Below are positions 4,558 to 45,564 of a stretch of DNA of 64,000 nt, piece by piece (the first letter of the stretch is position 1; every line of letters begins with the position of its first letter). The notes beneath the pieces were generated by a model. That model had not been told where the DNA came from and did not search any database. It worked only from the letters and a program-made list of their open reading frames with translations. This DNA comes from Bacteroidales bacterium (GTDB taxonomy: Bacteria > Bacteroidota > Bacteroidia > Bacteroidales > VadinHA17): positions 8,250-72,249 of the forward strand of contig DAOOUQ010000016.1 of NCBI GenBank assembly GCA_035390825.1, read 5' to 3'. Position numbers and translations under genes: made by a program.

Positions 4558-4651
4558 TCTGACAAATAGTTTTTATTTATATTCATTCCAAATTATTGAT
4601 TGTGTCAAATATCATAAACTCTGAACATATTCACTGGTTCATGTCTTTTAT

Positions 4652-5527
4652 TCAGCCCGATTTCAGGTCCAGGAAATCTTCAATCCTCTTACCCGGATAA
4701 AACAGTATTCCGGCCGCTGGCCATATTTTTTTCATATACCTGTCCTGTTCCGCTCTTATGGCCAAAACCAGTTCATCGACAGGTCCGGGAGTCACTGACG
4801 GCCTGTATTTATAACCCAGTGTTTTGACCAGAACCGACAGATCATTATATTTCCCAAGATATTGTCCGAGGGTATCAAGTTTCTTTTCCAGTCTTTTTAC
4901 AGGACCCGGATTCAGAGGTCTGAAGAAAAACAGTTGGAACATAAGGTCTTTTATCTTTTTTCTGAGTTCATGTATGTTTTTATCCTTAAGGTAGTTTCGG
5001 GCTTTAAGATAAGCTGATGAAGCAAGGTCCCATGATAAGGCAAGCGATTTCAGGAGAATACTCGGATCTTCAGAATTCATGGCCAAGAACCTTAGTCTGT
5101 ATTCCGATTTTTGGAGAAGGCTGACAATGCTTTCAATATCCTTTCTGATACCTTCGTCAGGCAGAATTTCCTGATCGGGCCTTTTCATGAGTGCAGCTAT
5201 CTTTTCATTTCCGGACAATCCGGAAAAAACAGTCGGATGTTTTTTTTTAAGATCCTTAAGCAGTTTTCTCAGCACGGAAGTCTCGCGCCATGAGCTCATT
5301 ATCCTGCCGGCTTCACGGAGTGAACCATATTCGCGCCTGAATATTTCTTCGCCTGTGGTTATTTTAAGCAATTTTAATGCTGCCCTCGATTTCTTCATGA
5401 GAACCCTGATATCATGGACGGCATCCTCACCAGGAACCTTTGAAGGATCGAGCATATACCGAGCCTCCCTTATGTAACCGCAAAGAACAGGTTTGATATC
5501 CGTCAGTCTGGGATGGGCAGTATCCAT
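4652..5527 (-). CDS. CHAD domain-containing protein
   Basis: The 291-aa protein is predicted all-helical and has a CHAD-like HDIRVxxKKxRAALKL motif. It neighbours ppk1, and CHAD proteins are known to associate with polyphosphate. Confidence 0.6.
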   Translation of the reverse strand: MDTAHPRLTDIKPVLCGYIREARYMLDPSKVPGEDAVHDIRVLMKKSRAALKLLKITTGEEIFRREYGSLREAGRIMSSWRETSVLRKLLKDLKKKHPTVFSGLSGNEKIAALMKRPDQEILPDEGIRKDIESIVSLLQKSEYRLRFLAMNSEDPSILLKSLALSWDLASSAYLKARNYLKDKNIHELRKKIKDLMFQLFFFRPLNPGPVKRLEKKLDTLGQYLGKYNDLSVLVKTLGYKYRPSVTPGPVDELVLAIRAEQDRYMKKIWPAAGILFYPGKRIEDFLDLKSG

Positions 5528-5655
5528 TTGATACCGTGTGTTAACAGCTCCGTAAATTTAACAAAATAATCATTAGGGAAATTACGGAATAACAGAAGAT
5601 TTCATATGAATAATAGCGCCAAAAAACTAATTTTGTTTATGGAACAAAAACGGAT

Positions 5656-6699
5656 GTGATGGGAAAGACATACAAAGGGCAGCGAATAGGAATATTGACA
5701 GCCGGCGGCGATTGCCCCGGAATAAATGCAGCTATACGCGGAGTGGGAAAAACTGCCATAGTGAAATACGGCATGAAGGTCATTGGTATAAGCGACGGTT
5801 TTACCGGACTTATCAACAAGGAATACAGGGAGCTTAACGAACATGACCTTTCAGGCATACTTACACTTGGGGGGACAATACTTGGGACGTCGCGCGAAAA
5901 GCCTTTCAAGAACGACAGGAAAGGCCGCAATGACCTCCGTAAGCCTGTCCTGATAAAGGAACATTACGAGCAGATGGAACTTGACTGCCTCGTCTGCATC
6001 GGGGGTAACGGGACCCTCAAAACGGCCAACCTTCTTGCCCAGGAAGGACTGAATGTGGTCGGCATTCCAAAGACTATCGACAATGATGTATGGGGCACTG
6101 ACCTTACTTTTGGTTTTGATTCTGCTGTAAACATTGCCACCGAGGCCATTGACAGACTTCATTCGACGGCCAACTCCCACAAGAGAATAATGGTAATCGA
6201 GCTGATGGGGCACAATGCCGGATGGATAGCTCTTTATTCCGGCATAGCCGGGGGAGGGGATGTGATACTGATCCCGGAAATACAATACAACGAAAAGATT
6301 ATTGCCGAATACCTTGTTTCGAGGTTCAGGGAAAACAAGGCATATTCTATAATGGTCGTTGCCGAGGGAATAAAAACCCCTGTGAAGGAAGAGCCGGCAG
6401 CAAGATATCTTAGTCGCAGGATAGCTGAACTGACAGGCATCGAGACACGCGAGACGGTACTGGGGTATATCCAGCGCGGAGGAACTCCTTCGCCTATGGA
6501 CAGGGTGCTTGCCACACGTTATGGCGCTGCTGCCGCTGATCTTATAGCAGCTAAAGAGTATGGCAAAATGGTTGCACTCAGGAACAATGAGATAACTTCA
6601 GTGCCATTATCGGAAGTGGCAGGCAGGCTGAAGTTTGTTGATCCTGCCAACCCTTTGGTAATTAAAGCCAAAAACATGGGAACCAGCTTCGGCGACTGA
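5656..6699 (+). CDS. pfkA: 6-phosphofructokinase (PfkA family; phosphoryl-donor specificity ambiguous)
   Basis: The 347-aa protein has GILTAGGDCPGINAAIRG, CIGGNGT, GIPKTIDND and MGHNAGW motifs. Confidence 0.9.
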   Translation: MMGKTYKGQRIGILTAGGDCPGINAAIRGVGKTAIVKYGMKVIGISDGFTGLINKEYRELNEHDLSGILTLGGTILGTSREKPFKNDRKGRNDLRKPVLIKEHYEQMELDCLVCIGGNGTLKTANLLAQEGLNVVGIPKTIDNDVWGTDLTFGFDSAVNIATEAIDRLHSTANSHKRIMVIELMGHNAGWIALYSGIAGGGDVILIPEIQYNEKIIAEYLVSRFRENKAYSIMVVAEGIKTPVKEEPAARYLSRRIAELTGIETRETVLGYIQRGGTPSPMDRVLATRYGAAAADLIAAKEYGKMVALRNNEITSVPLSEVAGRLKFVDPANPLVIKAKNMGTSFGD

Positions 6700-6769
6700 C
6701 CGCACACCGGATGCCTGACACCAGATGCCTTTTTAAAACATGAATGAATAATTATCAGATCTGTTCAAC

Positions 6770-7264
6770 ATGAAACACTTAATTTTCGTTCGCCATGCAA
6801 GAGCCGAAGATGATTCAGGATCATTTCCCGATTTCGAAAGGTCGCTTACATCAAACGGAAAGATAACATCTGAGAAGATGGCAGACAAATTCAGGGAAAA
6901 GGTGAAGGAACCAATGGTGTTCATTACAAGTCCCGCCTTCAGGGCTTATGAGACAGCGCTTGTTTTTGCGAGGGTCCTGAAGTATAAGCCTGAAAATGTC
7001 GTCCTGAAAAATGCGCTTTACACAGATCCCAACCTGAATGCTCTTGGTGATATGCTTTCCGAAGTGGATGATGCAGTTGATACGGTGGTCCTCTTTGGTC
7101 ATAATCCTTCATTTACCGAACTGGCCGACAGGCTCTCAAAGAATGGCTGTGACTTCCTTCCAAAGGCCGGAATTGTATGCCTTGCATTCAGGACAGACAC
7201 GTGGAATGGCATTGTCCGCGAAAGGGGAAGCGTTGAATATTTCCTGAAACCCGAGAAACACTGA
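6770..7264 (+). CDS. Histidine phosphatase family protein (SixA-like)
   Basis: The 164-aa protein has an N-terminal RH motif (LIFVRHARAE) and a later GHNP motif. Its stop overlaps the ppk1 start by 1 nt. Confidence 0.7.
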   Translation: MKHLIFVRHARAEDDSGSFPDFERSLTSNGKITSEKMADKFREKVKEPMVFITSPAFRAYETALVFARVLKYKPENVVLKNALYTDPNLNALGDMLSEVDDAVDTVVLFGHNPSFTELADRLSKNGCDFLPKAGIVCLAFRTDTWNGIVRERGSVEYFLKPEKH

Positions 7265-9324
7265 TGGGAAGAACATATATACCAAAAGAGATAAGCTGGC
7301 TTTCCTTCAATGAACGGGTTTTGCAGGAAGCGGAGAACAAGGATGTTCCGCTGATGGAACGTTTTAAATTCCTTGGTATTTATTCGAATAACCTTGATGA
7401 ATACTTCAGGGTAAGGGTTGCCACCCTAAGGAGATTGTCGCAGCTGGGACAGAAATCAAACGACATACTCGGATACAGTGCAAAGGCAACACTTAAGAAG
7501 ATCCATGAGATAGTCCTTGAACAGAACGTACGGTTTGAGAAGATATTTACAAATCTTCTTGGCGAGCTTGCAAAACATAAAGTACATATTGTCAACGAAA
7601 AGCAACTTAACAAGGCCCAGGCTGATTTCGTAAGGAACTACTTCCTTAAGGAGGTCCGTAACAGGCTGATGCCCTTTCTGATCGGGAAGGCCAGTGAGCT
7701 TCCGAACCTTACTGATGACGCAATTTACTTTGCTATTTATCTTTCAAAAAAAGGTGACCAGAAGAAACGCTATGCCCTTCTTGAAATACCAACTGACATT
7801 CTTCCACGCTTCATAGTGCTTCCGGAAAAAGATGACGGCAGGTATGTCATTTTTCTGGATGACATAATAAGGTTCGGACTCAGGGACATCTTTTTTATTT
7901 TTGATTTTGACGATATAAGGGCTTACACTATTAAGCTGACAAAGGACGCTGAGTTCGAGCTTATTGACGATATCTCGGAGAGCTACATCGAAAAGATTTC
8001 ACGAAGCCTCCAGCAGAGAAGGCATGGCAACCCGGTGCGTTTCATCTATGACAGGGAAATGCCTTCCGATATGCTCAGGATGCTTACAAAAATGCTGAAC
8101 TTTGGTCCTGATGATGTGATAATTCCGGGCGACAGGTATCATAATTTCAAGGACTTCATGCGTTTCCCGCATCTTGGAAAGAAAAAGTATTACTATGAGC
8201 CTCTTGTTCCAGTCGATCACAAGGATATACAGCCGGGCAAAAGCATCCTGTCGGCCATAAAAAAGAAGGACATAATGCTTTTTTTCCCATATCATCCTTT
8301 TGATCATTTTATCGACCTTCTTAGGGAAGCATCAATAGACCCGTATGTGACGTCAATACAGATAACACTTTACCGTCTGGCAGCCAATTCAAGTGTCATA
8401 AACGCTCTTATGAATGCTGTAAGGAACGGCAAGAAGGTGACTACTGTCGTGGAACTGCAGGCCCGCTTTGATGAGGAAGCCAACATCCTGTGGGGCAACA
8501 AGCTGATGGAAGAGGGAGTTAAGGTGATTTATGGTGTCCCCGGTTTAAAAGTTCATGCAAAACTATGTCTTATAACACGTTCCAGGAACGAGATCATTCA
8601 AAGATATGCAGCCGTAGGTACAGGAAACTTCAACGAAGATACTGCAAGGGTGTACACTGATCATCTTCTTCTGACTTCAAACAAAAAGATCACTAATGAG
8701 GTTTTCAAGACCTTCAACTTTTTCAATGTCAATTACCGGAAGGACAATTATTATCATCTTATTCTCTCTCCCTTTTTCATGAGAAACAAGATGAACCTTC
8801 TTATAGAAAATGAGATAAAGAATGCCAAAGAAGGGAAGAAGGCATATATATATCTGAAACTAAATAACATAAGTGATGTTGAAATAATTAACCTTCTATA
8901 TGAAGCCAGTCAGGCAGGAGTCAAAATCAGGATGATAGTCAGAGGCATGTTCTCGCTTGTGACAGGAGTCAGCGGACTGAGTGAAAATATTGAAGCCATA
9001 GGTATAGTCGACAGGTTCCTCGAGCATACGAGGTTCATGATCTTCTGCAATGACGGAAACGAGGAGTGTTACATTTCATCTGCCGACCTTATGACAAGGA
9101 ATATTGAGCACCGGATTGAAGTCACATGCCCGGTTTTTGACAAAAACATTAAAAGCGAACTGAAACGGATATTTGAAATACAGTGGGCCGATAATGTAAA
9201 AGCCAGAAGACTCGATCTGTCTCTCTCGAACAAAATGGTGAAGACAGGAAAGGACCCGGTTCACTCGCAGATGGAAGTTTATAATTATTTTAGGAAGATA
9301 AATGCAAAGTGCAGTGATAAATAG
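7264..9324 (+). CDS. ppk: Polyphosphate kinase 1
   Basis: The 686-aa protein has the typical PPK1 N-terminus (ISWLSFNERVLQEA...PLxERxKFLGIxSxNLDEFF), the autophosphorylated His region (GLKVHAK), and two PLD-like C-terminal domains. Confidence 0.95.
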   Translation: MGRTYIPKEISWLSFNERVLQEAENKDVPLMERFKFLGIYSNNLDEYFRVRVATLRRLSQLGQKSNDILGYSAKATLKKIHEIVLEQNVRFEKIFTNLLGELAKHKVHIVNEKQLNKAQADFVRNYFLKEVRNRLMPFLIGKASELPNLTDDAIYFAIYLSKKGDQKKRYALLEIPTDILPRFIVLPEKDDGRYVIFLDDIIRFGLRDIFFIFDFDDIRAYTIKLTKDAEFELIDDISESYIEKISRSLQQRRHGNPVRFIYDREMPSDMLRMLTKMLNFGPDDVIIPGDRYHNFKDFMRFPHLGKKKYYYEPLVPVDHKDIQPGKSILSAIKKKDIMLFFPYHPFDHFIDLLREASIDPYVTSIQITLYRLAANSSVINALMNAVRNGKKVTTVVELQARFDEEANILWGNKLMEEGVKVIYGVPGLKVHAKLCLITRSRNEIIQRYAAVGTGNFNEDTARVYTDHLLLTSNKKITNEVFKTFNFFNVNYRKDNYYHLILSPFFMRNKMNLLIENEIKNAKEGKKAYIYLKLNNISDVEIINLLYEASQAGVKIRMIVRGMFSLVTGVSGLSENIEAIGIVDRFLEHTRFMIFCNDGNEECYISSADLMTRNIEHRIEVTCPVFDKNIKSELKRIFEIQWADNVKARRLDLSLSNKMVKTGKDPVHSQMEVYNYFRKINAKCSDK

Positions 9325-9330
9325 AATGCA

Positions 9331-9855
9331 ATGAATATTTATACTTTAATAACGGGCACGGTTGCTATAATTTTATTCTCCTGGTTCTTTTCCATAAAGC
9401 ACGGGAGGTATCATGCAATACCAAGGTTTTTTTCATTCGAGAGCATCTTTCTTCTGGTTTTGCTTTGCATTAAAGTATGGTTTCATAATCCTTTTTCATG
9501 GTACCAGACAATTTCGTGGATCCTTCTCCTGGTTTCGGCATATGCAGGGATTGCCGGGTTCATTACCTTGAAAATCAAAGGGAAGCCTGGCGGAAATTTC
9601 GAGAATACGTCCTTTCTGGTGAAATCAGGGATCTATTCTGTGATCAGGCATCCTCTTTACCTGTCGCTGTTTTGTCTGGGTTCAGGTGTTATGATGAAAA
9701 ACCCGGGGAAATATGAGATAATCCTCGGAGTCGTAAATGCCGTCGCGGTCTTTTTTACGGCCCGCATTGAAGAGAAGGAGATGATCGAAAAGTTCGGTGA
9801 GCCTTACAGGGAATATATCAGGGAGACGAAGATGTTTCTGCCGTATATTCTGTGA
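9331..9855 (+). CDS. Isoprenylcysteine carboxyl methyltransferase (ICMT)/phospholipid methyltransferase family membrane protein
   Basis: The 174-aa protein has 4-5 TM segments and a GIYSVIRHPLYLS motif. Confidence 0.7.
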   Translation: MNIYTLITGTVAIILFSWFFSIKHGRYHAIPRFFSFESIFLLVLLCIKVWFHNPFSWYQTISWILLLVSAYAGIAGFITLKIKGKPGGNFENTSFLVKSGIYSVIRHPLYLSLFCLGSGVMMKNPGKYEIILGVVNAVAVFFTARIEEKEMIEKFGEPYREYIRETKMFLPYIL

Positions 9856-10029
9856 TCATTCTCTGTAGTCGTCCCCGGATTTTGGGGGGAATTCTTACTG
9901 TCAACCCTTTTTACGACACGTCACCCCCCCTCGCTCTCCCGTAATCTTCCCGGCATCCTTTGCACAAACTTCCTTCACTTTGCGGTTTAATAAATGATTT
10001 CTATATTTACCTGAACTAAAATATAAATT

Positions 10030-10419
10030 ATGAAAAGCAGAATACTCACGATCTCGGTTCTATTTTTATTCCTGTCGGTTGCACTGTCGGCCCAGAACAC
10101 TGCGAAAAAAGACACTGCCCTCGGCAGATGGAAATTTGAAGCTCCCTATGCCCCGGAAGGATTTACCACCGGAACTATTGAATTCACATTCGCTGACAAC
10201 AGGCACTCATCTTCAATTTCGTTCACCGGGAACGACTACAAGATTCCCGGCGACAAGACCAAAATAGAAAAGGATACAGTCACATTCTCGGTTGTCGTTG
10301 AGGGAAATGAAGTCGCGGTAACACTTAAAATTGAAAGCGACTCGAAAATGACAGGCAAGGCTGTCACGTATGATGGCGAGATCCCTCTTACTCTCACAAG
10401 AGAAATCCGGAATAAATAG
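10030..10419 (+). CDS. Hypothetical secreted protein
   Basis: The 129-aa protein has a signal peptide (LFLFLSVALSAQ). I recognised no family. Confidence 0.5.
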   Translation: MKSRILTISVLFLFLSVALSAQNTAKKDTALGRWKFEAPYAPEGFTTGTIEFTFADNRHSSSISFTGNDYKIPGDKTKIEKDTVTFSVVVEGNEVAVTLKIESDSKMTGKAVTYDGEIPLTLTREIRNK

Positions 10420-10436
10420 TCCAGAAAAGATATCCG

Positions 10437-12404
10437 ATGAAAATCAGGCTGGTTCTTATTATCATCCTCAGTAACATTTTTCTTTCACTTTATCCTCAGA
10501 TAGTCAATAAGAAACCTCTTAGTGAAAGAATTACAGGATACAGGTTTGACGTCAGGCTAAATCCCGACAAACATACCGTGAGCGGCGACATGGAGGCGTT
10601 CTGGGTCAACAGGTCGGCTGACACTGTGCCGGATATTCGACTGCATCTTTACATGAATGCCTTCCGGAGTAACCGGACAACCATGTACAGGGAAATGGGA
10701 GGATCACCGGGAAATGATGAAAAAGACCTGGGATGGATAGAAATTAATTCCTTCAGTGATCAAAACGGCGCTGACCTTATACCCCGTATGCAGTATATAA
10801 GTCCGGATGACGGTAACAAGGACGACAGGACAGTACTGAGGGTGCTTCTTCCGCAGCCGGCGATGCCCGGAGACACTGTATTTATCAAAGTGAATTTTGA
10901 GACCAAACTTCCTTCAAGGATAAGACGTACAGGTTACAGCGGCGATTTTTATTTCGTTGCCCAGTGGTTCCCCAAATTCGGGGTTTATGAACCTGCAGGT
11001 ATGCGCTATGCAACAAAAGGAGGATGGAACTGCCACCAGTTCCATGCCACATCAGAGTTTTACTCCAATCACAGCGTTTATGATGTCAGGATCACCCTTC
11101 CTTCAAGCCACGTCATCGGTTCGGGAGGAATGCTGATATCCGAAAAAGCAGATGGTAATATGAAAACCGTTACATACCGGGCCGAGGATATTGTCGATTT
11201 TGCATGGACAGCCTGGCCGGGTTATGCTGTGTTCAACGACAAGTGGAAACACGTGAATATCACACTGCTTATACCCAAAGACAGGATAAAACAGGCAGAG
11301 CGCCAGCTTAAATCGGTAAAACATGCGCTTGAATATCTTGATACGAATGTCGGGCCTTATCCCTGGCCCCATCTCACCTTCGCTGATCCTCCATCAACAG
11401 GGGCAGGTGCAGGAGGGATGGAATACACAACAATTTTCACCTCCGAATCGTCCTACTTTGTTCCGCCCTTTATACACTTGCCGGAAATGGTGACAGTTCA
11501 TGAGTTCGGACATGCATATTTCATGGGTATCATGGCCAGCAATGAATTTGAGGAACCATGGCTCGATGAGGGAGTCAATTCGTACTGGGAGCAGAGGATA
11601 ATGGATAACTATTACGGGAAAAACTCAGGCCTTCTCAACCACAAATTCCTGGAATTATCTGATATTGCTTCGGCGCGTATTTCATACGTTACTTCACCCT
11701 CGCGTCAGGCTGCCAGCAATAATGAATATTCATGGAACTACCCGCATGACACTTACAGCATGATGTCGTACCAGAAAACCGCAACATGGCTTCATACGCT
11801 CGAAGGTATTATAGGTACCGAAACAATGAATAATGTTTTTCGCGAATATTACAGAAGATGGGCTTTCAGACATCCGTCGGGCCGCGATTTCATAAATGCA
11901 GTCAATGATGTTGTCAGAAAAGAACATGGTCAGAAATTCGGTGCAGATATGAACTGGTTTTTTGATCAGACTTTATATGGGACAGGAATTTGTGATTACA
12001 AGGTAAGCAGGATAGTCAACAGCAAATACAGCAAACCGGAAGGGAAAACCGACACGGCAGATCCGGAAGCCGGGGCATGGAGCAATACAGATTCCCTGTA
12101 TACTTCAAAAGCTCAGCTTGAAAGGGTCGGCGAAGTAAAACTGCCTGTTGAGGTCCTCATCCATTTTGACAACGGAGATGAAGTTCTTGAGAGCTGGGAC
12201 GGGAAAGAAAGATACAAGGATTTTGAATACAAGGGGTACAAACAGATCGTTTGGGTGAAAATTGACCCTGAATACAAAATAAAGATGGATGTGAATTTTA
12301 TTAATAATTCTATGACGACAGAACCATCCAAAGCGCCTCTTCACAGGATAGCAAATAAAATTATGACGTTCACCCAGTTCTTTTTAAGTATCATGTTATT
12401 GTAA
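10437..12404 (+). CDS. M1 family (gluzincin) metallopeptidase
   Basis: The 655-aa protein has an N-terminal signal or anchor. It carries HEFGH followed by WLDEG (HExxH-x18-E). Confidence 0.8.
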   Translation: MKIRLVLIIILSNIFLSLYPQIVNKKPLSERITGYRFDVRLNPDKHTVSGDMEAFWVNRSADTVPDIRLHLYMNAFRSNRTTMYREMGGSPGNDEKDLGWIEINSFSDQNGADLIPRMQYISPDDGNKDDRTVLRVLLPQPAMPGDTVFIKVNFETKLPSRIRRTGYSGDFYFVAQWFPKFGVYEPAGMRYATKGGWNCHQFHATSEFYSNHSVYDVRITLPSSHVIGSGGMLISEKADGNMKTVTYRAEDIVDFAWTAWPGYAVFNDKWKHVNITLLIPKDRIKQAERQLKSVKHALEYLDTNVGPYPWPHLTFADPPSTGAGAGGMEYTTIFTSESSYFVPPFIHLPEMVTVHEFGHAYFMGIMASNEFEEPWLDEGVNSYWEQRIMDNYYGKNSGLLNHKFLELSDIASARISYVTSPSRQAASNNEYSWNYPHDTYSMMSYQKTATWLHTLEGIIGTETMNNVFREYYRRWAFRHPSGRDFINAVNDVVRKEHGQKFGADMNWFFDQTLYGTGICDYKVSRIVNSKYSKPEGKTDTADPEAGAWSNTDSLYTSKAQLERVGEVKLPVEVLIHFDNGDEVLESWDGKERYKDFEYKGYKQIVWVKIDPEYKIKMDVNFINNSMTTEPSKAPLHRIANKIMTFTQFFLSIMLL

Positions 12405-22487: not shown

Positions 22488-22831
22488 TAAACAAAAATAA
22501 TAAAAGATGCCATATCCCCTTCAAATCTCACAAACGTTTTCATCAGTGTTCACCAGTGTAATCAGTGGCTCTTTTTTTCATCCATCATTATTGTTTTTGT
22601 CCTAATTCATCTTTTTGGCTTATCGGGTCTATATATATAATTAGTAATGCTAACCAGGATGCTTTGCTGCGAAATATAAATCAGTCTCTATGGTTGGTGA
22701 GACAAATCATTTTGCCGGGTCATGAATATTTTAACAACCCCTTCACTCGGCATGCCATTTACTAAGTATAAATACTCATCCCAAAATGGGTACTAACCCT
22801 CTTACAGTTGTGTGTTGAAAAAAATACTTTT

Positions 22832-22849
22832 GTGTGAATAAATTAACAA
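22832..22849. promoter_or_regulatory. Candidate Rex-type operator GTGTGAATAAATTAACAA upstream of the Hdr-like operon
   Basis: It is identical at 16 of 18 positions to the perfect palindrome at 4540-4557. Its half-sites are GTGTGAA and TTAACAA, and it ends 20 nt before the ATG at 22870. Confidence 0.4.
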
Positions 22850-22869
22850 ACACTGTAGTTCCCGGTCAG

Positions 22870-23580
22870 ATGGAGAATTATCATGAACTTCTGAAGCAGG
22901 ATGTAAGGTTTGAGGAGGGTCTCAATGCATGCATGAATTGCGGGGTATGCACTGCCATATGTCCGGCGGCTGAATTTTACGACTATGATCCGCGGAAAAT
23001 TGTGGATCTTGTTCAGTCCGGCGACAATGCTGAAATTGAAAAGCTTCTTAAATCCGAGACCATCTGGTACTGCGGCGAATGCATGTCGTGCAAGACAAGG
23101 TGTCCAAGGGGAAACACTCCTGCCCTTGTTATTATGGCGCTCCGCACTCTTTCGCAGAAACTCGGTTTTTTCACGGAGTCGGAAAAAGGCCGCCAGCAGT
23201 TTGCCATAAAACGGACAGTGGGTGAAAATATCTTCAAATACGGTTATTGTGTAGCCGCTTATGCCGTTAGCCCTGAATTGCACCCCGAGCAGGGACCAGT
23301 CTGGAAATACGTGATCGAAAATTCGCATGAGGTGTTTGAACGCCTTGGCGGGAAAATAGATGAATACGGCGCAGGTCCTCTACGGAAGATTCCTGAGGAC
23401 GCAAAGGAAGAACTTAAAAAGATATTTGAAGTGACAGGAGGGATGGAAATGTTTGATATGATTGAAGAACATTCAAAGAAGAAAGCTGCGGAAATGGGAT
23501 TGCAGATCGATGATGAAGGAATTGATAACGAGTATTTTATAGAAGTTTATACTGCCAATAACGGCAAGCATACAACCTGA
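22870..23580 (+). CDS. HdrC-like 4Fe-4S dicluster protein with an uncharacterised C-terminal extension
   Basis: CMNCGVCTAICP and CGECMSCKTRCP motifs are followed by about 130 aa of unassigned sequence. The ORF track offers an alternative GTG start at 22834, which lies inside the candidate operator. Confidence 0.7.
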   Translation: MENYHELLKQDVRFEEGLNACMNCGVCTAICPAAEFYDYDPRKIVDLVQSGDNAEIEKLLKSETIWYCGECMSCKTRCPRGNTPALVIMALRTLSQKLGFFTESEKGRQQFAIKRTVGENIFKYGYCVAAYAVSPELHPEQGPVWKYVIENSHEVFERLGGKIDEYGAGPLRKIPEDAKEELKKIFEVTGGMEMFDMIEEHSKKKAAEMGLQIDDEGIDNEYFIEVYTANNGKHTT

Positions 23581-23592
23581 AACTGCTTGACT

Positions 23593-24654
23593 ATGGTAAA
23601 TGAAGGTAAAAAAAGGGTATGGTCTGAATATCAGAAGGAAATTGCTGATGATCATTTCTTTTATGTGAGATCATGCATCAGGCAGAGCTTTTATCCCGGG
23701 TCGGAACAGTTTTTTCTGAATTTCCTGCGCAATGATCTGGGGAAAGATGTGTACGAGAATCCGTCTCATACAACCTGCACAGGGATTGGTTATCATGGTG
23801 ACATAGTCCCGTTTTCAACTACTCAGACAGTGGTGGCACGTCATTTTGCCCTGATGAAGGAATCAGGTTATAAGAATATTGCAATATCATGTGTTACCTC
23901 ATTCGGGATTTATACAGAAATTCTTGAGACCTGGAAGCATTTTCCCGCAGAGCTTGAAAAGACTCGCGAATACCTTTTCAAAGCAACCGGCAGGGAGTTC
24001 GATATTCCTGAAAATATGGCTCATACAAGTGACATAATATATAAATTCAGGAATGAGATAACTGCAAAAATCAAATATCCTCTGATAAACAGGCTGACCG
24101 GAAAACCACTGAAAGTTGTTGAACACATCGGGTGCCATTATGCCAAGATGTTCCCGAAACATGGGGTGGGAGGGGCCGAGTTTCCCCGCGTGTTAAGCGG
24201 TATGGCCGAAGCATGGGGAGGAGAGGTTGTTGATTATCCCGAAAGACGTCATTGCTGCGGATTTGGTTTCCGGCAGTATCTTGTTCAGGCTAACAGGGGC
24301 TATTCACTTTCGAATACGGTGAAGAAGTTCGAGTCGATGAAACCATATGAACCCGACCTGGTACTTACTAATTGCCCGGGTTGCAACATGTTCATGGACA
24401 AATGGCAGTATACTGCAAAGGAAATGGAAGGCATGACCTTCGGCTCAAACGGGCAGTCAATACCGGTGCTGACATATGAAGAGCTGGCCGGGCTTGTCCT
24501 TGGATACAATCCGTGGGATCTAGGGCTTCAGTACCATATGGTCCAGTCGGAACCTCTTCTCAGGAAGATGGGAATAGAAGTCGACAGCGGGGATAAATAC
24601 CGTACCAGGGACGGACGACAGATGCCAATTCCTAAAAATCTCATAAATGCCTGA
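23593..24654 (+). CDS. HdrB-like CCG-domain protein
   Basis: It has a canonical C-terminal CCG domain (RRHCCGFGF ... TNCPGC) and a degenerate N-terminal copy (HTTCTGIG). The ATG at 23593 is preferred over the TTG at 23587. Confidence 0.75.
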   Translation: MVNEGKKRVWSEYQKEIADDHFFYVRSCIRQSFYPGSEQFFLNFLRNDLGKDVYENPSHTTCTGIGYHGDIVPFSTTQTVVARHFALMKESGYKNIAISCVTSFGIYTEILETWKHFPAELEKTREYLFKATGREFDIPENMAHTSDIIYKFRNEITAKIKYPLINRLTGKPLKVVEHIGCHYAKMFPKHGVGGAEFPRVLSGMAEAWGGEVVDYPERRHCCGFGFRQYLVQANRGYSLSNTVKKFESMKPYEPDLVLTNCPGCNMFMDKWQYTAKEMEGMTFGSNGQSIPVLTYEELAGLVLGYNPWDLGLQYHMVQSEPLLRKMGIEVDSGDKYRTRDGRQMPIPKNLINA

Positions 24655-25675
24655 TATGAAAGGAAGTGTTATAGTGGTCGGGGGAGGAACTGCAGGCATG
24701 GAAGCTGCAGGCCGGCTGGCTGAAGAAGGATTTTCAGTGACACTCATCGAAAAGGAAAAAGAACTTGGCGGCCATTTAAGGGAATGGCATCACCTTTTTC
24801 CCGACCGGCGCCCGGGAAGCGAGGTTATGTCGTATCTAAAAAAGCGTATCGAAAAGGTAAATGTTATCACCGGGACAACAGTCGAATCTTTTCACAAAAA
24901 AGGACGTGAATTCATTGTCAGTACAGGCAACGGAAATTCGATTCATGGTGATGCAATGCTTCTTACAACAGGATTCGACCTTTTCAGGAGCGAAAGGAAG
25001 GAAGAATACGGCTATGGTATCTACGAAAACGTCATTACTTCTGCGGACCTCGAGATGATGTTCACCAAAAAAAGCGTCAGGCTGAAAAATGGTGAAAAAC
25101 CGGAAAGGATAGGATTGCTTCACTGTGTGGGGTCGAGAGATGAAAAAGCAGGTAATCTTTATTGTTCAAAATTATGCTGTGTCACTGCCGTGAAGCAGGC
25201 AATAGAGCTCAGGGAAACACTTGGCGACAGCAAGGTCTTCTGCTTCTATATGGATATGAGGATGGGAGGAGCTTTGTATGAAGAGCTTTACAGGGAGGCA
25301 CAGGAGAAATACGGCATTGGATTTATAAGAGGAAAAATATCCGAGGTAAGTACGAACATTAATAACAGACTGGTGGTCAAGGCCGAAGATACTCTTGCGG
25401 GACGACCTCTCAGAATGGAACTCGACATGCTTGTTCTTATGGCAGGAATGGAAATGTCGCAGACAGGGACCAGACTGGCCGAATCGGGGAACCTGAAAAC
25501 CGGTGAAAACAGGTTTTTTGCACCGGCCGACCATCATTTCGGAAGCAATAAAAGCAACGTGAAAGGGATTTTCTATGCCGGGACCTGCACTGCACCAATG
25601 AATATTACCGAAACGATATCCCATGCACGGAGTGCTGCTGCCGATATTGCCGGGTATCTGAAAAACAGCAAATGA
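24647..25675 (+). CDS. HdrA-like FAD-dependent oxidoreductase, short form
   Basis: The 342-aa protein has the VIVVGGGTAGMEAAGRLAEEG dinucleotide fold and the HdrA signature HCVGSRD...YCSKLCC. It lacks the ferredoxin and MvhD-type extra domains. It overlaps the HdrB-like stop by 8 nt. Confidence 0.8.
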   Translation: MPDMKGSVIVVGGGTAGMEAAGRLAEEGFSVTLIEKEKELGGHLREWHHLFPDRRPGSEVMSYLKKRIEKVNVITGTTVESFHKKGREFIVSTGNGNSIHGDAMLLTTGFDLFRSERKEEYGYGIYENVITSADLEMMFTKKSVRLKNGEKPERIGLLHCVGSRDEKAGNLYCSKLCCVTAVKQAIELRETLGDSKVFCFYMDMRMGGALYEELYREAQEKYGIGFIRGKISEVSTNINNRLVVKAEDTLAGRPLRMELDMLVLMAGMEMSQTGTRLAESGNLKTGENRFFAPADHHFGSNKSNVKGIFYAGTCTAPMNITETISHARSAAADIAGYLKNSK

Positions 25676-25676
25676 T

Positions 25677-26021
25677 ATGGAGAAATTTGGCTTTTCACTT
25701 CAGAAGGCACGTGTCATAAACTATGATTCGAACGACAGATCAATTGTTGATTATGTCATCGGGAGGGAACCAAGCCTGAAGCTTTGCATCGAATGCGGAG
25801 GCTGTTCTGCTACATGTACCACAGGCATGTTCACTCATTTCAGCCTGAGGGAAATGAATATTCTCCTGAAGAGGGGAGAGAATAAAGAGGTCAGGAATAA
25901 AATTAAACAATGCATGCTTTGCGGTAAGTGCATTCTTGTATGTCCGCGCGGTGTAAATACACGGAACGTGGTATTTCTTGCAAAACAGGCATTTCAAAAA
26001 TACAGCACCCATGCAGTTTGA
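25677..26021 (+). CDS. Small 2x[4Fe-4S] ferredoxin-like protein (HdrC-type)
   Basis: The 114-aa protein has CIECGGCSATC and CMLCGKCILVCP motifs. Confidence 0.7.
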   Translation: MEKFGFSLQKARVINYDSNDRSIVDYVIGREPSLKLCIECGGCSATCTTGMFTHFSLREMNILLKRGENKEVRNKIKQCMLCGKCILVCPRGVNTRNVVFLAKQAFQKYSTHAV

Positions 26022-27912
26022 TCCTTTTGTTTTGCCGTTTGACATAGGACTCTATTTCATCCTGTTGTATGTGGTAGCCAGGAGCGTTATCTGGTTCAGG
26101 CAGCTGTCAAGGCCCGACAAGCTAAGGCTTCAGCGCGGTTTCTTCGGGCGAGCCTTTGGCCAGAGCCTGAGGGAGATATTCCTTGAAAGCCTGATCCACA
26201 GGAAGATCCTTAAGAAGAATCCAAGACTTGGATATATGCATATGAGCCTTGCCTTCGGCTGGTTCCTCCTTATTCTTTTTGGTACTATTGAGGCTGATAT
26301 TTTCGGGGAAAGCCATCTTAACCCACCCTCGCGTGCAATTTTCTTCAGGTTTTTTAATCCCGATCATGGAAAGACTCTTTTTGAGTCGGCATATGCCTTC
26401 CTGATGGATCTTATTCTGGCATTTATTCTGTCGGGGCTTCTGCTTGCAATCATCAAAAGGTTTTCATCAAGGGTTGTCGGGATGAAGAAGACCACGCGCC
26501 TCAGGATGCTTGACAAGGTGGCGCTTACTGCTCTCTGGCTCATTTTCCCGAGCAGGCTTATAGCCGAAAGCCTGACAAGCGGAGCCTATGGAACCGGGAG
26601 TTTCCTTACGGGGAGCCTCGGGTCGGTGCTGGCTTCATTCCTTCCTGCGAAAGAGGCTGCATACCCGTTCTGGTGGCTGTATTCGCTTTCCCTCGGGACT
26701 TTCTTTGTTCTTCTGCCTCTGACAAGATATATGCATATCCCCACCGAGCTCTTCCTTATTTTCATGAGGAATTCAGGCATTAAAACAGGCGACAGGGCAG
26801 GAACATTCTCGGAGGTTGAAGTTCATTCCTGTTCATCATGCGGTATGTGCATAGATCAGTGCCAGCTTAACTTTTCGGCCGGGATAAATACTATTCAGGC
26901 AACTTACCTGATGAAAGCTGTCAGAAACAATTACGACACCAGAGATATTGCTTACAACTGCCTCATGTGCGGCAGGTGCGACGAAGTGTGCCCAGTGGGA
27001 ATAGAAATCTCTCCGATAAGGATGATAGAGCGGAGAAACTCTGAGTCCGGAATGAGGTATTCAAATATCTGGAAAGGATATTTCAGGACACGTCCGGTCC
27101 AGTCTGCAACCAGACAAAATTCAAAAAACAGCTATGATTTTCTTCCGGCAGCCAATCCGGAAAAAACCGATGTCCTTTATTTTGCCGGTTGCATGACTCA
27201 TCTGACGCCCGCTATAAAGAATGCGATGACTTCCATTCTTGATGCTTCAGGTGTAAACTGGTCATTCATTGACGGGAACGGAGGGGTTTGCTGTGGAAGG
27301 CCTCTTATGCTGGCCGGACAGGATAAAGAGGCAAGGGAACTTATAAACTATAATTCGCAGCTTATATGGAAATCAGGTGCCAGCACGCTTGTTACTTCAT
27401 GCCCGATTTGCTATAAAGTTTTCAGGGAAAGCTATTATCTTGATGTTGAAGTGCTGCATCACTCTCAGTTCATCAAGAGGTGCATCGACGACCATTCGCT
27501 TAAACTGAATTTCATGCATAAGAATGTCACATACCACACCCCTTGCGAGCTTGGGAGGAATTCGGGAGTGTATGAGGAGCCCAAAGCCGTTCTCCGGCAT
27601 GTGGCAAATCTTGAACCTACCGGTTATGACGATGAAAAATCGCTATGCTGCGGAGGCTCGCTTGGCAATATCATGTTGAACCGGGCTGACAGACGGAAAA
27701 TTGCTTCAGATGTCACAAAAGTGCTTACAAAGAGCCATCCCGATTATCTCGCTACGGCATGCCCGTTATGCAAAAAAACACTTGCACCTGTCACCGATAC
27801 ACGAGTTGCCGATATTGCCGAGATCGTGGCGGGCGCAATTGTAAGGCCACAGTTAAAAAAAAATCACTTCAGGGAAAGCAGTAAAATGAAAGAATCAGCA
27901 GGCGTTGCATAA
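26011..27912 (+). CDS. Membrane-anchored Fe-S oxidoreductase: about 5 TM helices, a ferredoxin domain and two CCG domains (EMO / DsrMK / HmeCD-fusion-like)
   Basis: A hydrophobic N-terminal third is followed by CSSCGMCIDQC and CLMCGRCDEVCP. Two canonical CCG domains follow (GCMTH...CCGRP...CPIC; PCELG...CCGGS...CPLC). The likely start is MQFDPF at 26011; the ORF frame opens at 25978. Confidence 0.7.
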   Translation: MQFDPFVLPFDIGLYFILLYVVARSVIWFRQLSRPDKLRLQRGFFGRAFGQSLREIFLESLIHRKILKKNPRLGYMHMSLAFGWFLLILFGTIEADIFGESHLNPPSRAIFFRFFNPDHGKTLFESAYAFLMDLILAFILSGLLLAIIKRFSSRVVGMKKTTRLRMLDKVALTALWLIFPSRLIAESLTSGAYGTGSFLTGSLGSVLASFLPAKEAAYPFWWLYSLSLGTFFVLLPLTRYMHIPTELFLIFMRNSGIKTGDRAGTFSEVEVHSCSSCGMCIDQCQLNFSAGINTIQATYLMKAVRNNYDTRDIAYNCLMCGRCDEVCPVGIEISPIRMIERRNSESGMRYSNIWKGYFRTRPVQSATRQNSKNSYDFLPAANPEKTDVLYFAGCMTHLTPAIKNAMTSILDASGVNWSFIDGNGGVCCGRPLMLAGQDKEARELINYNSQLIWKSGASTLVTSCPICYKVFRESYYLDVEVLHHSQFIKRCIDDHSLKLNFMHKNVTYHTPCELGRNSGVYEEPKAVLRHVANLEPTGYDDEKSLCCGGSLGNIMLNRADRRKIASDVTKVLTKSHPDYLATACPLCKKTLAPVTDTRVADIAEIVAGAIVRPQLKKNHFRESSKMKESAGVA

Positions 27913-28063
27913 ATCTAAGATTCAATTGCTTGCATTTTGTTAATAAATTATCTCCATATTAACATATCTTTCGCATCTTTTTTGTTCTTTCGCAAAAAGA
28001 AACAGATACTGAAATTGTTTTCATTTCGTTCTATTAATGTTGTTAATCAAAATATTCTGATAT

Positions 28064-44178: not shown

Positions 44179-44649
44179 TTAATATGTATTGATAAATGAT
44201 ATGATTTTATCGGCCGTATTCTTTACAAGGTACGACATTTTTTCGCCAAAATCAATATTCTCAGGTTGAATTCCAAGTAAATATACAGGCATCTTAAAAA
44301 AATCTGAAACCCTTCTGAGCGAGATATTGTGCGTGTTGAATGTCATGTCTTCTGTCTGGTTGATATTTAGCAGCTTGTAATCTCCGGGGACAGAGCACAT
44401 ATCCAATGCATCGATGATTACAAGTATGTCAGGGCCGATCCTGTTTATCTTTCCGATGTAATTTTCGATGCTTACCTCGACAGTCAGTGCTGATACTGTC
44501 CCCGATCCTTTTATCCCTGAGCTTATGTAAGCGCCTGCCCCGTCGTCTTTCCTGAGGAGATTGCCTATCCCGACAAAAAGGATCTTTTTATCTCTTTGCG
44601 AAAGAAGGTTGATGAGTTCTTCAGACACTTTTTGAAAGGTATTTGACAA
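44179..44649 (-). CDS. Hydrogenase maturation endopeptidase (HycI/HyaD family)
   Basis: The 156-aa protein has the ILFVGIGNLLRKDDGAG motif. Confidence 0.8.
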   Translation of the reverse strand: MSNTFQKVSEELINLLSQRDKKILFVGIGNLLRKDDGAGAYISSGIKGSGTVSALTVEVSIENYIGKINRIGPDILVIIDALDMCSVPGDYKLLNINQTEDMTFNTHNISLRRVSDFFKMPVYLLGIQPENIDFGEKMSYLVKNTADKIISFINTY

Positions 44650-45241
44650 GAACCTGCCTAAGGCAGTTTGGACATATTATATTGAACATGTCTTTACGCT
44701 TAAGCCCGTCGCGGACTTCGGCCTCCAGATCATGGCCCTCTGCGAGGCGGAGTTCCCTGTTAAGGATATTCAGGTTCAGTATTGATGAAAATGCTTTCGG
44801 GCCAAGCTTTTTGTGAAGGTATGAAAGATGCTCCCTTGTAGTTATTACGGCACCGCAATGCCGGCAGACAAGAAGCTCTTTTTCCTGGTATTCAACATTG
44901 ATTTTCCTGTCAAACACTGCAAGGTCAAAAAGCTTGTCTGAGAGAGCCACTCCTTTTCCTGTAATACAATGTTCCTGGCAAAGCCCGCAGAAAATACATT
45001 TGCCGTAATCCCTTGTTATAGTCCTGATCCCCTTTTCCCTGTCGTCTGAAAATGTTATGGCATGGGGCGGACATACGTTGGTGCATGTCTCGCAGCCAAC
45101 GCAGTTGTCGTCGTCGACGACGGGTCTGCCCCTGTAATTTTCAAACGGTACATGCGGCTCTGCCGGATACCTCGAAGTATATGCAGGAGTAAACATTGAA
45201 ACCACGGCTTCCCTTAATTCCCTTAATTTCGGATATTTCAT
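44621..45241 (-). CDS. NuoI/MbhN-like 2x[4Fe-4S] subunit with a C-terminal CxxC...CxxC extension
   Basis: The 206-aa protein has CVGCETCTNVCP and CIFCGLCQEHC motifs. An additional CRHC ... CPNC pair lies in a tail of about 80 aa. Confidence 0.75.
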   Translation of the reverse strand: MKYPKLRELREAVVSMFTPAYTSRYPAEPHVPFENYRGRPVVDDDNCVGCETCTNVCPPHAITFSDDREKGIRTITRDYGKCIFCGLCQEHCITGKGVALSDKLFDLAVFDRKINVEYQEKELLVCRHCGAVITTREHLSYLHKKLGPKAFSSILNLNILNRELRLAEGHDLEAEVRDGLKRKDMFNIICPNCLRQVLVKYLSKSV

Positions 45242-45564
45242 TTCACAGCCTCCTTGTAATCATCTTTTACTGTCCGTTTATCGAGCGGTGTGCCGAACCT
45301 GTAGGTTCCTCTGATCAGGGCATGAGCAGCAACTGTCGCGGTGAAGAAAAGTACGGGAATTGCCACAATGGCTTTTATGCCGGCGTCCGAAATGCCGAAA
45401 TGGAACAATACCCCGATAAGGATGCTGCAACACCCAAGCGTCACACATTTGGTGGCCGCCTGAAGCCTGTTATAAACATCCGGGAGCCGGATCAGTCCGA
45501 TACATCCGAAAATATTGAATAAAACACCAATGCAGATAAAAATAATTGCGATCATCTCATTCAT
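45238..45564 (-). CDS. Mrp/Mnh antiporter subunit G-like
   Basis: The 108-aa protein has a GLIRLPDVYNRLQAATK motif typical of MnhG. Confidence 0.8.
   Translation of the reverse strand: MNEMIAIIFICIGVLFNIFGCIGLIRLPDVYNRLQAATKCVTLGCCSILIGVLFHFGISDAGIKAIVAIPVLFFTATVAAHALIRGTYRFGTPLDKRTVKDDYKEAVK

Follow-up and report, generated by a model that had tools for sequence, protein, structure and literature searches.

What might a set of heterodisulfide reductase (Hdr)-like genes do in a bacterium of the order Bacteroidales? The question is raised by a 64-kb stretch of DNA (64,000 nt; called the window below, and all coordinates are window positions) on contig DAOOUQ010000016.1 of a Bacteroidales bacterium. 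Between positions 22870 and 27912, this window holds five overlapping or abutting plus-strand genes for an HdrC-, an HdrB-, and an HdrA-like protein, a 2x[4Fe-4S] protein, and a membrane iron-sulfur (Fe-S) protein. An earlier interpretation made from the letters alone (the sequence-only reading) had proposed such an HdrC-HdrB-short HdrA-ferredoxin-membrane cluster, and we recovered all five open reading frames (ORFs) where it had placed them, with their domains confirmed by Pfam, NCBIfam, and motif searches. We propose, with a probability of roughly 45%, that the five products make up one membrane-bound respiratory complex, which would pass electrons from a thiol-type carrier to menaquinone without direct proton-motive coupling.

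The five genes form a conserved and co-transcribed unit in Bacteroidia

The junctions between the five genes measure +6, -8, +1, and -11 bases. A genome scan with the membrane protein yielded 29 loci (L001-L029) from metagenome-assembled genomes (MAGs) of uncultured Bacteroidales/'Rikenellaceae', in which the same five genes stand between the same flanks. In addition, at least 566 genome stretches came up in an alignment-based scan with two motifs of the membrane protein, and the best 80 of them were fetched and checked. All 80 come from Bacteroidia, namely Alistipes (including A. senegalensis and human-gut MAGs), Rikenellaceae, Prolixibacteraceae, and Marinilabiliaceae; 74 carry all five genes with their order kept, and the other 6 are cut by contig ends. 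The check on synteny in related Bacteroidota that the sequence-only reading had suggested thus came out in its favor: ~100 distinct Bacteroidia loci (40-97% identity) carry the operon in an identical order, and the flanking genes change between lineages. Given the at least 566 stretches that match the two motifs, the operon is probably present in several hundred Bacteroidia species. Its habitats are anaerobic digesters, sediments, and animal guts, and the hosts include cultured human-gut Alistipes.

Homology searches with the membrane protein and the HdrA-like protein returned near relatives only (at least 66% identical) and no distant context, which was obtained instead from a search of 1.84 billion representatives clustered at 50% and from alignment-based locus scans. 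The representative search found ~30 full-length relatives of the membrane protein at 37-49% identity, after which the matches drop to generic proteins of ~30%. The Fe-S cysteines are without exception 100% conserved among 94-102 distinct orthologues (40-97% identity), as are C30, C64, and C102 of the HdrB-like protein, Cys139 in the arm of the HdrC-like protein, and three histidines of the membrane domain. Moreover, wherever a locus among the ~100 fetched is untruncated, hdrCBA-fd accompanies the membrane gene, which is never linked to etfAB.

RNA evidence comes from two sludge metatranscriptomes only (X11 and X14). Sludge runs within X1-X6 that are catalogued as 'RNA-Seq' (including X1 and X5) were rejected as a source of RNA, since they gave single contigs of 55-67 kb that span the whole stretch at flat depth and are evidently DNA. 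In X11 and X14, 15 of the 16 RNA pieces listed for an 11-kb stretch lie inside 22997-27826, and individual contig pieces bridge all four gene junctions, so the co-expression on which the sequence-only reading had staked its claim is borne out for these five genes. Elsewhere in the window, 39 kb contributed only 7 + 2 pieces among those listed; the operon is the most strongly represented part of the 64-kb window in these two digester metatranscriptomes. Collectively, the kept order, the varying flanks, the invariant cysteines, and the RNA that crosses the junctions show that the five genes are a conserved, co-transcribed, and actively expressed unit.

The first three genes encode an sHdrC1-B1-A-type core

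The NCBIfam models HdrA2, HdrB, and HdrC match the first three proteins at 237, 144, and 92 bits, and their equivalog cut-offs are 1100, 450, and 350 bits, respectively. Since all of these cut-offs are missed by far, the proteins are Hdr-like and not heterodisulfide reductase proper. As a reference set for type I of the sHdr systems (the Hdr-like complexes of sulfur-oxidizing bacteria), 80 shdr loci were fetched with the sequence of 6TJR, the solved sHdrA of Hyphomicrobium denitrificans. One of them (L112), which is 99% identical to 6TJR, has the order sHdrC1 (247 aa, at 7738 of the fetched locus), sHdrB1 (475 aa, at 8500), sHdrA (at 9992), sHdrH, sHdrC2, sHdrB2, and LbpA. Its C1-B1-A order recurs as HdrC-HdrB-HdrA in the window and in the ~100 loci, and the C1-B1-A core is the part common to both described sHdr types (PMC11094781).

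The first gene is hdrC-like and of the sHdrC1 type (22870-23580, + strand), and it encodes 236 aa from ATG 22870. Its ORF opens with GTG at 22834, where the sequence-only reading had put the start. The real start is probably ATG 22870 (M13 of the ORF), because alignments with homologues open at residue 12-13 and a promoter-like element lies at 22825-22849. The protein has two CX2CX2CX3C motifs, and the NCBIfam HdrC model matches residues 15-214 on profile positions 13-195 of 198 (E = 4.5e-26, under the cut-off). The C-terminal extension of ~130 aa that had been described as unassigned is therefore mostly the normal C-terminal arm of HdrC, and only ~34 residues are surplus to an ordinary HdrC. 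In its N-terminal cluster domain, the protein is 40% identical to the sHdrC1 of Hyphomicrobium (247 aa), which it matches in length. The NCBIfam QmoC model gave a partial match (E = 6e-13; 49 bits vs. a cut-off of 300). Matches to solved methanogen structures reached E = 8e-13 for the HdrC-like and E = 5e-29 for the HdrB-like protein.

The second gene is hdrB-like and of the sHdrB1 type (23587-24654, + strand; 355 aa). Motif inspection confirmed the one canonical and one degenerate CCG domain that had been noticed before. The C-terminal domain is canonical, with C183, CC223/224, C263, and C266; the N-terminal half is degenerate, with only C30, C64, and C102, and Pfam and NCBIfam recognize a single CCG domain. 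All eight of these cysteines (C30, C64, C102, C183, C223, C224, C263, and C266) are invariant. T[ST]C[ST] replaces the first 'CC', CxTSF[GA] replaces the first 'CxxC', and the protein has the motif CCGFGFR. In a motif table of 45 sequences, these three motifs are common to 8 type I sHdrB1 proteins and the HdrB1-like protein of an Actinomycetota MAG (L215, described below), and they are absent from 2 methanogen HdrB, 8 sHdrB2, and 13 other HdrB-like proteins, which keep CC(G/P), CxxC, and CCG(A/G/S).

The third gene is hdrA-like and encodes a short Fe-S flavoprotein of the sHdrA type (24647-25675, + strand; 342 aa). It carries the HCVGSRD...CSKLCC signature without ferredoxin or MvhD domains, and its cluster cysteines C160, C173, C177, and C178 are invariant. 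Among solved structures, its best relative is 6TJR, on whose residues 4-334 the residues 8-332 align unbroken (E = 1.4e-57), with 35% identity over the full length. The sHdrA-like size and the CSxxCC signature that the sequence-only reading had pointed out for this 342-aa protein agree with that alignment and with the missing ferredoxin and MvhD domains. Methanogen HdrA aligns only as two separate blocks, 3-53 and 103-335, which indicates that the N-terminal, the inserted ferredoxin, and the C-terminal ferredoxin domains are missing here.

Judged by their sequences, genes 1-3 are an sHdrC1-B1-A-type core; the assignment draws on the HdrA architecture, the derived motifs shared by the HdrB proteins, and the contexts of the nearest relatives, and not on a full phylogeny. 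As a separate observation, the Hyphomicrobium sHdrC1 has no cysteine at the place of Cys139 of the HdrC-like protein (~23248-23250). Cys139 and C30, C64, and C102 of the HdrB-like protein could be four cysteines that ligate an unconventional cluster at the HdrB-HdrC interface, a possible site for which the linear [3Fe-4S] cluster with four Cys in EtfD offers a parallel.

A small HdrC-type protein precedes the membrane protein

The fourth gene (25677-26021, + strand) encodes an HdrC-type 2x[4Fe-4S] protein of 114 aa without the C-terminal arm, i.e., a bare two-cluster module. The two CX2CX2CX3C motifs expected for this protein are present, and all 8 cysteines are invariant. With 33-36% identity and E = 1e-9, it is equally near sHdrC1 and sHdrC2, which led us to reject an assignment as sHdrC2 in particular. 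The gene sits between hdrA and the membrane gene, where sHdrH and sHdrC2 would stand, and no sHdrH homologue was found in the window or in loci L001-L111. We infer that the 114-aa protein acts as an electron wire.

The membrane protein resembles the EtfD/EMO quinone module

The fifth gene (26011-27912, + strand) encodes an EtfD/EMO-type membrane protein. Its ORF opens with TTG at 25978, and gene callers choose ATG 26011, which gives 633 aa. The sequence-only reading had given 634-644 aa, a length that does not stand, along with ~5 transmembrane (TM) helices, a ferredoxin domain, and two canonical CCG domains, which do. More specifically, motifs and the helix boundaries of a model give 5 TM helices, two cubane motifs, and two complete five-cysteine CCG sets, and Pfam recognizes Fer4_8 and two CCG domains. 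Among the orthologues, H63, H77, H242, and all 18 Fe-S cysteines are invariant. The model was made with AlphaFold2 from 26 close homologues (predicted local distance difference test [pLDDT], 53.5; predicted TM-score [pTM], 0.41), and only its helix boundaries were used; profile-to-PDB sequence searches served in place of a fold search.

Sequence searches of solved structures gave a single relative, 9OJN (E = 1.8e-17; with the family profile, E = 6.6e-38), with which only the soluble part aligns significantly and at low identity. This structure is the EtfD of M. smegmatis, an electron transfer flavoprotein (ETF):menaquinone oxidoreductase (PMC13083937). EtfD has five TM helices, a single heme b on His78/His241, and two cubane and two CCG-domain clusters; Arg137, Arg150, and Arg306 lie at the heme propionates, Phe85 and Phe230 lie at the menaquinone site, and a linear [3Fe-4S] cluster and a His-ligated cluster occur, with Thr539 and His583 (PMC13083937). 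The EMO of Syntrophus aciditrophicus (SaEMO) was described in a preprint, in which the membrane domain is NarI-like, SaEMO has three hemes and a [4Fe-5S] cluster, and MsEtfD has the proximal heme only (Syntrophus EMO preprint). According to the same preprint, the mono-heme MsEtfD delivers electrons to the menaquinone pool from the cytoplasmic side without coupling to the proton-motive force.

In the Bacteroidia family, H63, H77, F85, K149, F231, and H242 show no variation, and R150 and R306 show hardly any. A profile alignment places H242 on EtfD His241, F231 on Phe230, and K149/R150 on Arg137, and family alignments pair H77 with EtfD His78 and F85 with Phe85. In addition, a TM-only profile of 4 Bacteroidia and 7 'bridge' proteins, in which H77, R150, E186, P236, and H242 are invariant, matched the NarI of E. 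coli (1Q16_C; E = 2.3e-8), with H242 on NarI His205. The histidine of the 'WW.H' motif of the bridge proteins falls on NarI His187 (distal heme), where the Bacteroidia have an invariant Tyr, and the same holds for the mono-heme MsEtfD. Lys and Arg residues number 10 and 5 in loops 1 and 3 vs. 3 and 0 in loops 2 and 4, a distribution that argues for an N-out, C-in topology with the Fe-S domains and both histidines at the cytoplasmic face. By these alignments, the NarI-family domain keeps only the proximal heme b ligands, H77 and H242, and is predicted to be of the mono-heme EtfD kind. The NarI match and the invariant residues at the heme b and quinone positions of EtfD speak for the menaquinone link claimed by the sequence-only reading; the heme- and quinone-site features that its TM and heme-ligand check was to look for are present in the sequence, so its claim does not fail on this point.

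Among NCBIfam models, DsrK (E = 8e-20; 71 bits vs. a cut-off of 400) and TfrB (E = 1e-34) match the membrane protein partially. GlcF, LutA, GlpC, TfrB, SdhE, and LdhH were rejected as identities, their partial matches being far under the cut-offs and the partner flavoproteins being absent. Likewise rejected was an sHdrB2 with an added anchor, for which BLASTP gave no match at E <= 1e-3 and a relaxed tblastn gave E = 0.006-0.01.

A proposed route from a thiol-type carrier to menaquinone

In the cytoplasmic core of the complex that we propose, an sHdrB1-like subunit would be the catalyst, an sHdrC1-like one the two-cluster wire, and a short sHdrA-like protein, probably a dimer, the FAD/[4Fe-4S] flavoprotein; the small HdrC-type 2x[4Fe-4S] protein (Fd below) would join this core to the EtfD/EMO-type membrane protein. 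By analogy with sHdrAA'C1B1C2B2, which is predicted to be an asymmetric complex (PMC11094781), the HdrA dimer might carry HdrC-HdrB on one side and Fd with the membrane protein on the other. A thiol-type substrate would give up its electrons at the sHdrB1-like site, from which they would run through HdrC, HdrA, and Fd to the CCG domain, which in EMO is the entry point of ETF (Syntrophus EMO preprint). From the CCG clusters, they would pass through the two cubanes and the proximal heme b to a menaquinone site at the cytoplasmic face. A carrier of persulfide or sulfane sulfur might play this part, or else a dithiol protein of the dihydrolipoyl type, and menaquinol would be reoxidized by quinol-consuming reductases, e.g., the PsrABC of this genome. 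In effect, it would amount to sHdr type II with a shortcut, the Hdr core feeding an EMO-like anchor directly and skipping EtfAB, sHdrH, and sHdrB3.

We infer the single physical complex, the kind of substrate, and the direction in which electrons flow, the last because only the proximal heme is kept, leaving no redox loop, and because the potentials of thiols and dithiols are far more negative than that of menaquinone. Lipoamide stands at about -290 mV vs. -74 mV for MK/MKH2 (oxidized and reduced menaquinone). A tentative and rather doubtful possibility is that sHdrC1B1A, the HdrC-type wire, and the mono-heme EtfD/EMO-like protein constitute a self-contained third sHdr-like type, which would carry electrons from a dithiol or persulfide to menaquinone and be switched on at high NADH/NAD+. 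A dihydrolipoyl protein of the GcvH/LbpA type might, for example, serve as its donor, as might a carrier of sulfane sulfur whose gene lies elsewhere.

Several observations weigh against the proposed complex. The HdrB-like protein is only 26% identical overall to type I sHdrB1, and the HdrA-like protein scores about equally per residue against sHdrA (198 bits over 325 residues) and methanogen HdrA (163.9 bits over 233). Genes for LbpA, lipoate ligase, DsrE, TusA, sHdrH, and EtfAB are unlinked in ~100 loci, and to our knowledge, the hosts are fermentative anaerobes and not known sulfur oxidizers. In the membrane protein, the TM2 histidine was equated with EtfD His78 from family alignments, with no significant pairwise alignment, and the structure model is too poor for cofactor geometry (pLDDT, 53.5). 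Finally, both CCG motifs of this protein are complete and invariant, as in the catalytic HdrB/HdrD and unlike the non-catalytic EtfD/EMO; since its CCG domains are fully canonical, the membrane protein may itself be a disulfide reductase that operates in reverse.

Weighing the alternatives

Reverse operation would make the system a menaquinol-dependent reductase of disulfides, persulfides, or polysulfides that serves sulfur respiration or thiol homeostasis; a sulfur compound of the cytoplasm would be reduced at the canonical HdrD-like CCG site of the membrane protein, at HdrB, or at both, in the manner of HdrDE and DsrMK. It would account for the ten cysteines in the CCG motifs of the membrane protein, where the distal cluster of EtfD/EMO is degenerate, and it would suit both the PsrABC and YeeE-type sulfur transporter of the genome and a Rex-like operator, which would befit electron disposal. 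However, the DsrK and TfrB partial matches that could be cited for it lie far under the curated cut-offs, as do the HdrD matches. Only the proximal heme site is kept, so neither a redox loop nor assistance by the proton-motive force is evident; ordinary thiol/disulfide couples lie beyond the reducing power of menaquinol; and no DsrC/DsrAB or other acceptor gene is linked in ~75 loci. We therefore regard this direction as unlikely. The operon might also hold two merely co-transcribed enzymes, the membrane protein being a genuine ETF:menaquinone oxidoreductase and HdrCBA with the Fe-S protein a separate or alternative input. The full EtfD/EMO architecture with its heme and quinone residues is what such an enzyme would have, EtfD/EMO act as single polypeptides that dock soluble ETF, and wider members of the family of TM-HdrD proteins stand without Hdr neighbors, e.g., in L195-L206. 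What makes this split improbable is that the membrane gene always accompanies hdrCBA-fd in the untruncated loci (~100) and never etfAB, that its start overlaps the fd gene by 11 bases, and that its distal CCG cluster is canonical and not EtfD/EMO-like.

The sequence-only reading had also raised flavin-based bifurcation, and we found no positive support for it, since the HdrA-like protein lacks every ferredoxin-interacting domain. In its fullest form, HdrA-FAD would bifurcate or confurcate between the menaquinone branch, made up of Fd and the membrane protein, and the HdrC-HdrB branch, as proposed for QmoABC. Such a role would be in keeping with the HdrA family as the classical bifurcating flavoprotein, with two Fe-S branches that leave HdrA, one to quinone and one to a CCG site, and with the Qmo analogy, to which the partial match of HdrC with QmoC (E = 6e-13) belongs. 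Nevertheless, we consider it highly improbable: the minimal 342-aa HdrA has neither ferredoxin domains nor MvhD, and where a low-potential partner could bind to it is not apparent; genes for a hydrogenase, a formate dehydrogenase, an NAD(P)H module, or a free ferredoxin are linked to the operon in none of the loci; and the 114-aa protein is an HdrC-type helical module and not a clostridial ferredoxin. A true methanogen-type reductase of CoM-S-S-CoB, the heterodisulfide of coenzymes M and B, has practically no chance of being encoded here, although the HdrA homologues go under the names 'heterodisulfide reductase subunit A' or 'A2' in their sources and the NCBIfam HdrA, HdrB, and HdrC models are the top matches. 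All of the equivalog cut-offs are far out of reach, the HdrA-like protein lacks four domains of methanogen HdrA, the N-terminal CCG site of the HdrB-like protein is degenerate, and Bacteroidia are, as far as we know, not known to make CoM or CoB.

Comparison with described systems

In sHdr type II, shdrC1B1AHB3 and etfAB form a single syntenic cluster, accompanied by emo (PMC11094781). The operon shares with it the order of the C1-B1-A core, the sHdrB1 motifs, the short sHdrA-type flavoprotein, and an EMO-type membrane Fe-S/heme protein at the end, which is thought to feed menaquinone. Unlike type II, it has no sHdrH, sHdrB3, or etfAB and no linked LbpA, lipoate ligase, or sulfur transferase, it has the 114-aa HdrC-type gene between hdrA and the membrane gene, and its hosts are anaerobic Bacteroidia. 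Type I (shdrC1B1AHC2B2), as found in Hyphomicrobium denitrificans and Aquifex aeolicus, has the same logic of a core plus a second HdrC-like and CCG arm, a similar length of sHdrC1, and the sHdrB1 motifs; here, in contrast, the second arm is membrane bound and unrelated to sHdrB2, sHdrH is lacking, LbpA is unlinked, and the HdrB-like protein is 120 residues shorter, with CPGC vs. DTGC in type I sHdrB1. Because sHdrH, C2B2, B3, and etfAB are absent, the operon is neither sHdr type I nor type II by the published synteny criteria (PMC11094781).

With EtfD/EMO, the membrane protein shares the single polypeptide, the 5-TM NarI-like domain, two cubanes, two CCG domains, and the heme and quinone residues, and it would be mono-heme as MsEtfD. 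It differs in lacking any association with etfAB, in being encoded within an hdrCBA-fd operon, and in having canonical five-cysteine CCG sites without the long disordered C-terminus of EtfD. The Pfam annotation of the window genes contains no ETF domain. HdrDE of Methanosarcina and DsrMK(JOP) of sulfate reducers, which connect a disulfide or trisulfide of the cytoplasm with a quinone-like pool, likewise combine a cytochrome b, two cubanes, and canonical CCG cysteines; here, however, the cytochrome and the Fe-S protein are fused, there is one heme site and an extra HdrCBA module, and DsrC, DsrAB, and a methanogenesis context are missing, with no dsr genes in the window. QmoABC resembles the operon in having HdrA-like flavoprotein(s) and an HdrC-like Fe-S/cytochrome b membrane subunit that leads to menaquinone, but Qmo has two HdrA-like proteins and no HdrB/CCG subunit and is tied to aprAB. 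Methanogen HdrABC (5ODC and 9SFI) consists of the three homologous subunit families, from which the present proteins are set apart by the truncated HdrA, the degenerate N-terminal CCG domain of HdrB, the lack of Mvh/Fdh, and the missed cut-offs. The sequence-only reading had stated that the cluster matches no described arrangement; this holds for Hdr/Mvh, Qmo, sHdr-LbpA, and Etf-EMO, but it needs the correction that genes 1-3 are related to the sHdr core.

We found no published description of this arrangement or of sHdr-like genes in Bacteroidia/Alistipes, although the supplementary tables of sHdr surveys may list Bacteroidota. The operon joins two modules, sHdr and EtfD/EMO, that have only recently been characterized structurally. 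If our proposal is correct, it would constitute a new electron route into the menaquinone pool of Bacteroidia, including human-gut Alistipes, and would bear on redox balance and sulfur handling of Rikenellaceae/Alistipes in the gut and in digesters. It would also offer a minimal, Etf-free, genetically approachable model for the sHdrB1-type site and for Hdr-quinone coupling. Furthermore, these genes receive the automatic names 'heterodisulfide reductase A/A2, B, C', orthology assignments (KOs) of this kind have been counted toward methane metabolism in gut metagenome surveys (e.g., PMC9515963), and part of that signal may stem from Bacteroidia rather than methanogens.

Relatives outside Bacteroidia offer a lead to the substrate

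Clustering of all neighboring genes, which covered ~75 loci, revealed no recurrent neighbor family that might name the substrate. GcvH/LbpA, lipoate ligase, DsrE, and TusA were found neither in the 64-kb window nor within 10 kb of the operon in L001-L111, with the sole exception of L075, where a gcvH-like gene lies ~8 kb off. The earlier statement that no EtfAB, LbpA, DsrE/TusA, or Mvh genes are adjacent proved true of the window and of all fetched orthologous loci.

Outside Bacteroidia, the nearest relatives of the membrane protein, with 27-31% identity and aligned from TM1 to the C-terminus, occur in Anaerolineae, Brocadiales, Desulfobacterales, Actinomycetes, Desulfurococcales, and Hydrothermarchaeota. 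We examined 22 such loci, namely those within L192-L212 with a full or near-full-length match and L220, L232, L245, and L249 (taken from 59 further loci). A GcvH-like protein (Pfam GCV_H, E = 1.7e-40) adjoins in 7 of the 22 (L192, L198, L207, L212, L220, L245, and L249), which belong to five phyla and whose hosts include Brocadiales (the anammox lineage) and a Desulfurococcales archaeon. A lipoate-protein ligase (LplA-B_cat, E = 2.9e-37) adjoins in 9 of the 22, several also have a two-CCG HdrB-like protein, and in 4 there is a weak DsrE-like protein. L212, the one locus annotated in full, showed no ETF. A subgroup from Thermodesulfobacteriota (L195-L206) is without lipoate-type or Hdr neighbors. 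These contexts suggest that TM-HdrD proteins of this class may often act on lipoate-binding proteins, a lead that fits the sHdr literature, according to which LbpA is essential and sHdr systems are always accompanied by LbpA and sulfur transferases.

Among the fetched loci, the HdrB and HdrC closest to ours outside Bacteroidia are those of L215, the Actinomycetota MAG whose protein shares the HdrB motifs (HdrB: 36% identity, E = 3e-49; HdrC: 32% identity over residues 20-205). Positions 215-6111 of this locus read DsrE, DsrE/H, DsrH, a GcvH-like LbpA, DsrE, HdrC1-like, HdrB1-like, and a soluble protein with Fd and 2xCCG domains. There is no hdrA between the B1-like and the CCG protein, and the contig ends at 6178. 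In addition, the HdrB1-like protein of L215 is without the first cysteine of the C-terminal CCG domain (GDHY).

A promoter-like element and a Rex-like palindrome precede the operon

TAnnTTTG is the consensus of the -7 promoter element of Bacteroidetes. A candidate of this type, TACTTTTG, lies at 22825-22832 (+ strand) and is the only TAnnTTTG in the 383-bp upstream region. It abuts an operator-like palindrome of 18 bp at 22832-22849, GTGTGAATAAATTAACAA, which resembles a Rex box and differs from TTGTGAANNNNTTCACAA at 2 positions. Most loci of this clade keep [TG]TGTTAAT-N4-TTAACA[AG] at -35 to -46 from the M13 start, and box scores of 10-12 of 12 were reached by 28% of upstream regions vs. 4% of background windows; the palindrome is not kept upstream of the operon in Alistipes and other distant lineages.

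Within the window, TTGTGAANNNNTTCACAA-type sites with <=3 mismatches number 14 vs. 5.5 expected, and 1 of 100 shuffles reached 14. A perfect 18-bp palindrome of the same box type, TTGTTAATAAATTAACAA, stands at 4540-4557, ~106 bp upstream of psrA. The window also has a rex gene (56825-57508), and TGTGA-N6-TCACA sites at 56640-56657 and 56823-56840 flank the divergent rex/hydrogenase region. The clostridial form of the Rex box is TTGTTAANNNNTTAACAA. As the half-sites before the hdr-like genes (TGTTA) differ from the TGTGA near rex and the hydrogenase genes, another regulator may act on the operon. Two sites bear on the co-regulation with hydrogenase and Psr through Rex that the sequence-only reading had suspected, namely the palindrome, which is conserved within this clade, and the box before psrA. 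Co-expression with psr and hydrogenase was not seen in X11 and X14, in which coverage was low and psr and hydrogenase were barely detected. Rex control of the operon is plausible only within this clade. A partial copy of the box, TTGTTAATAAATTATC, occurs at 27930-27960, just past the 3' end of the membrane gene and ahead of the lipoprotein-like ORF (28064).

Surroundings of the operon and other features of the window

The neighbors of the operon are unrelated to it. On its 5' side, BadF/MurQ/SIS-type sugar genes lie on the opposite strand, and on its 3' side, the small lipoprotein-like ORF (28064) is followed by purL. A psr locus occupies 22-4434 on the minus strand, where a fragment of a YeeE/YedE-type sulfur transporter (Sulf_transp) adjoins psrC (NrfD), psrB (Fer4_11), and psrA (molybdopterin). 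It looks like a locus for sulfur or polysulfide respiration, lies 18 kb from the hdr-like operon, and is not linked to it in other lineages.

Between the psr and peptidase genes, 4652-9324 hold a polyphosphate-related cluster composed of a CHAD-domain protein, an ATP- or PPi-type phosphofructokinase, and polyphosphate kinase 1. A group-4 [NiFe] hydrogenase operon of the Mbh/Mrp type (MnhE, Proton_antipo_M, MbhD/E, and NuoD/NuoC/NuoH-like) falls within 44179-57508; it has extra FAD/NAD-binding and Fer4_22 subunits (54817-56637), is divergent from rex, and is followed by hypF, hypD, and hypE. Rfam had no match anywhere in the window, including the region at 9772-10498 between PEMT-like and M1 peptidase genes, for which X14 contains RNA pieces, one of them skipping 178 bases (10166-10345).

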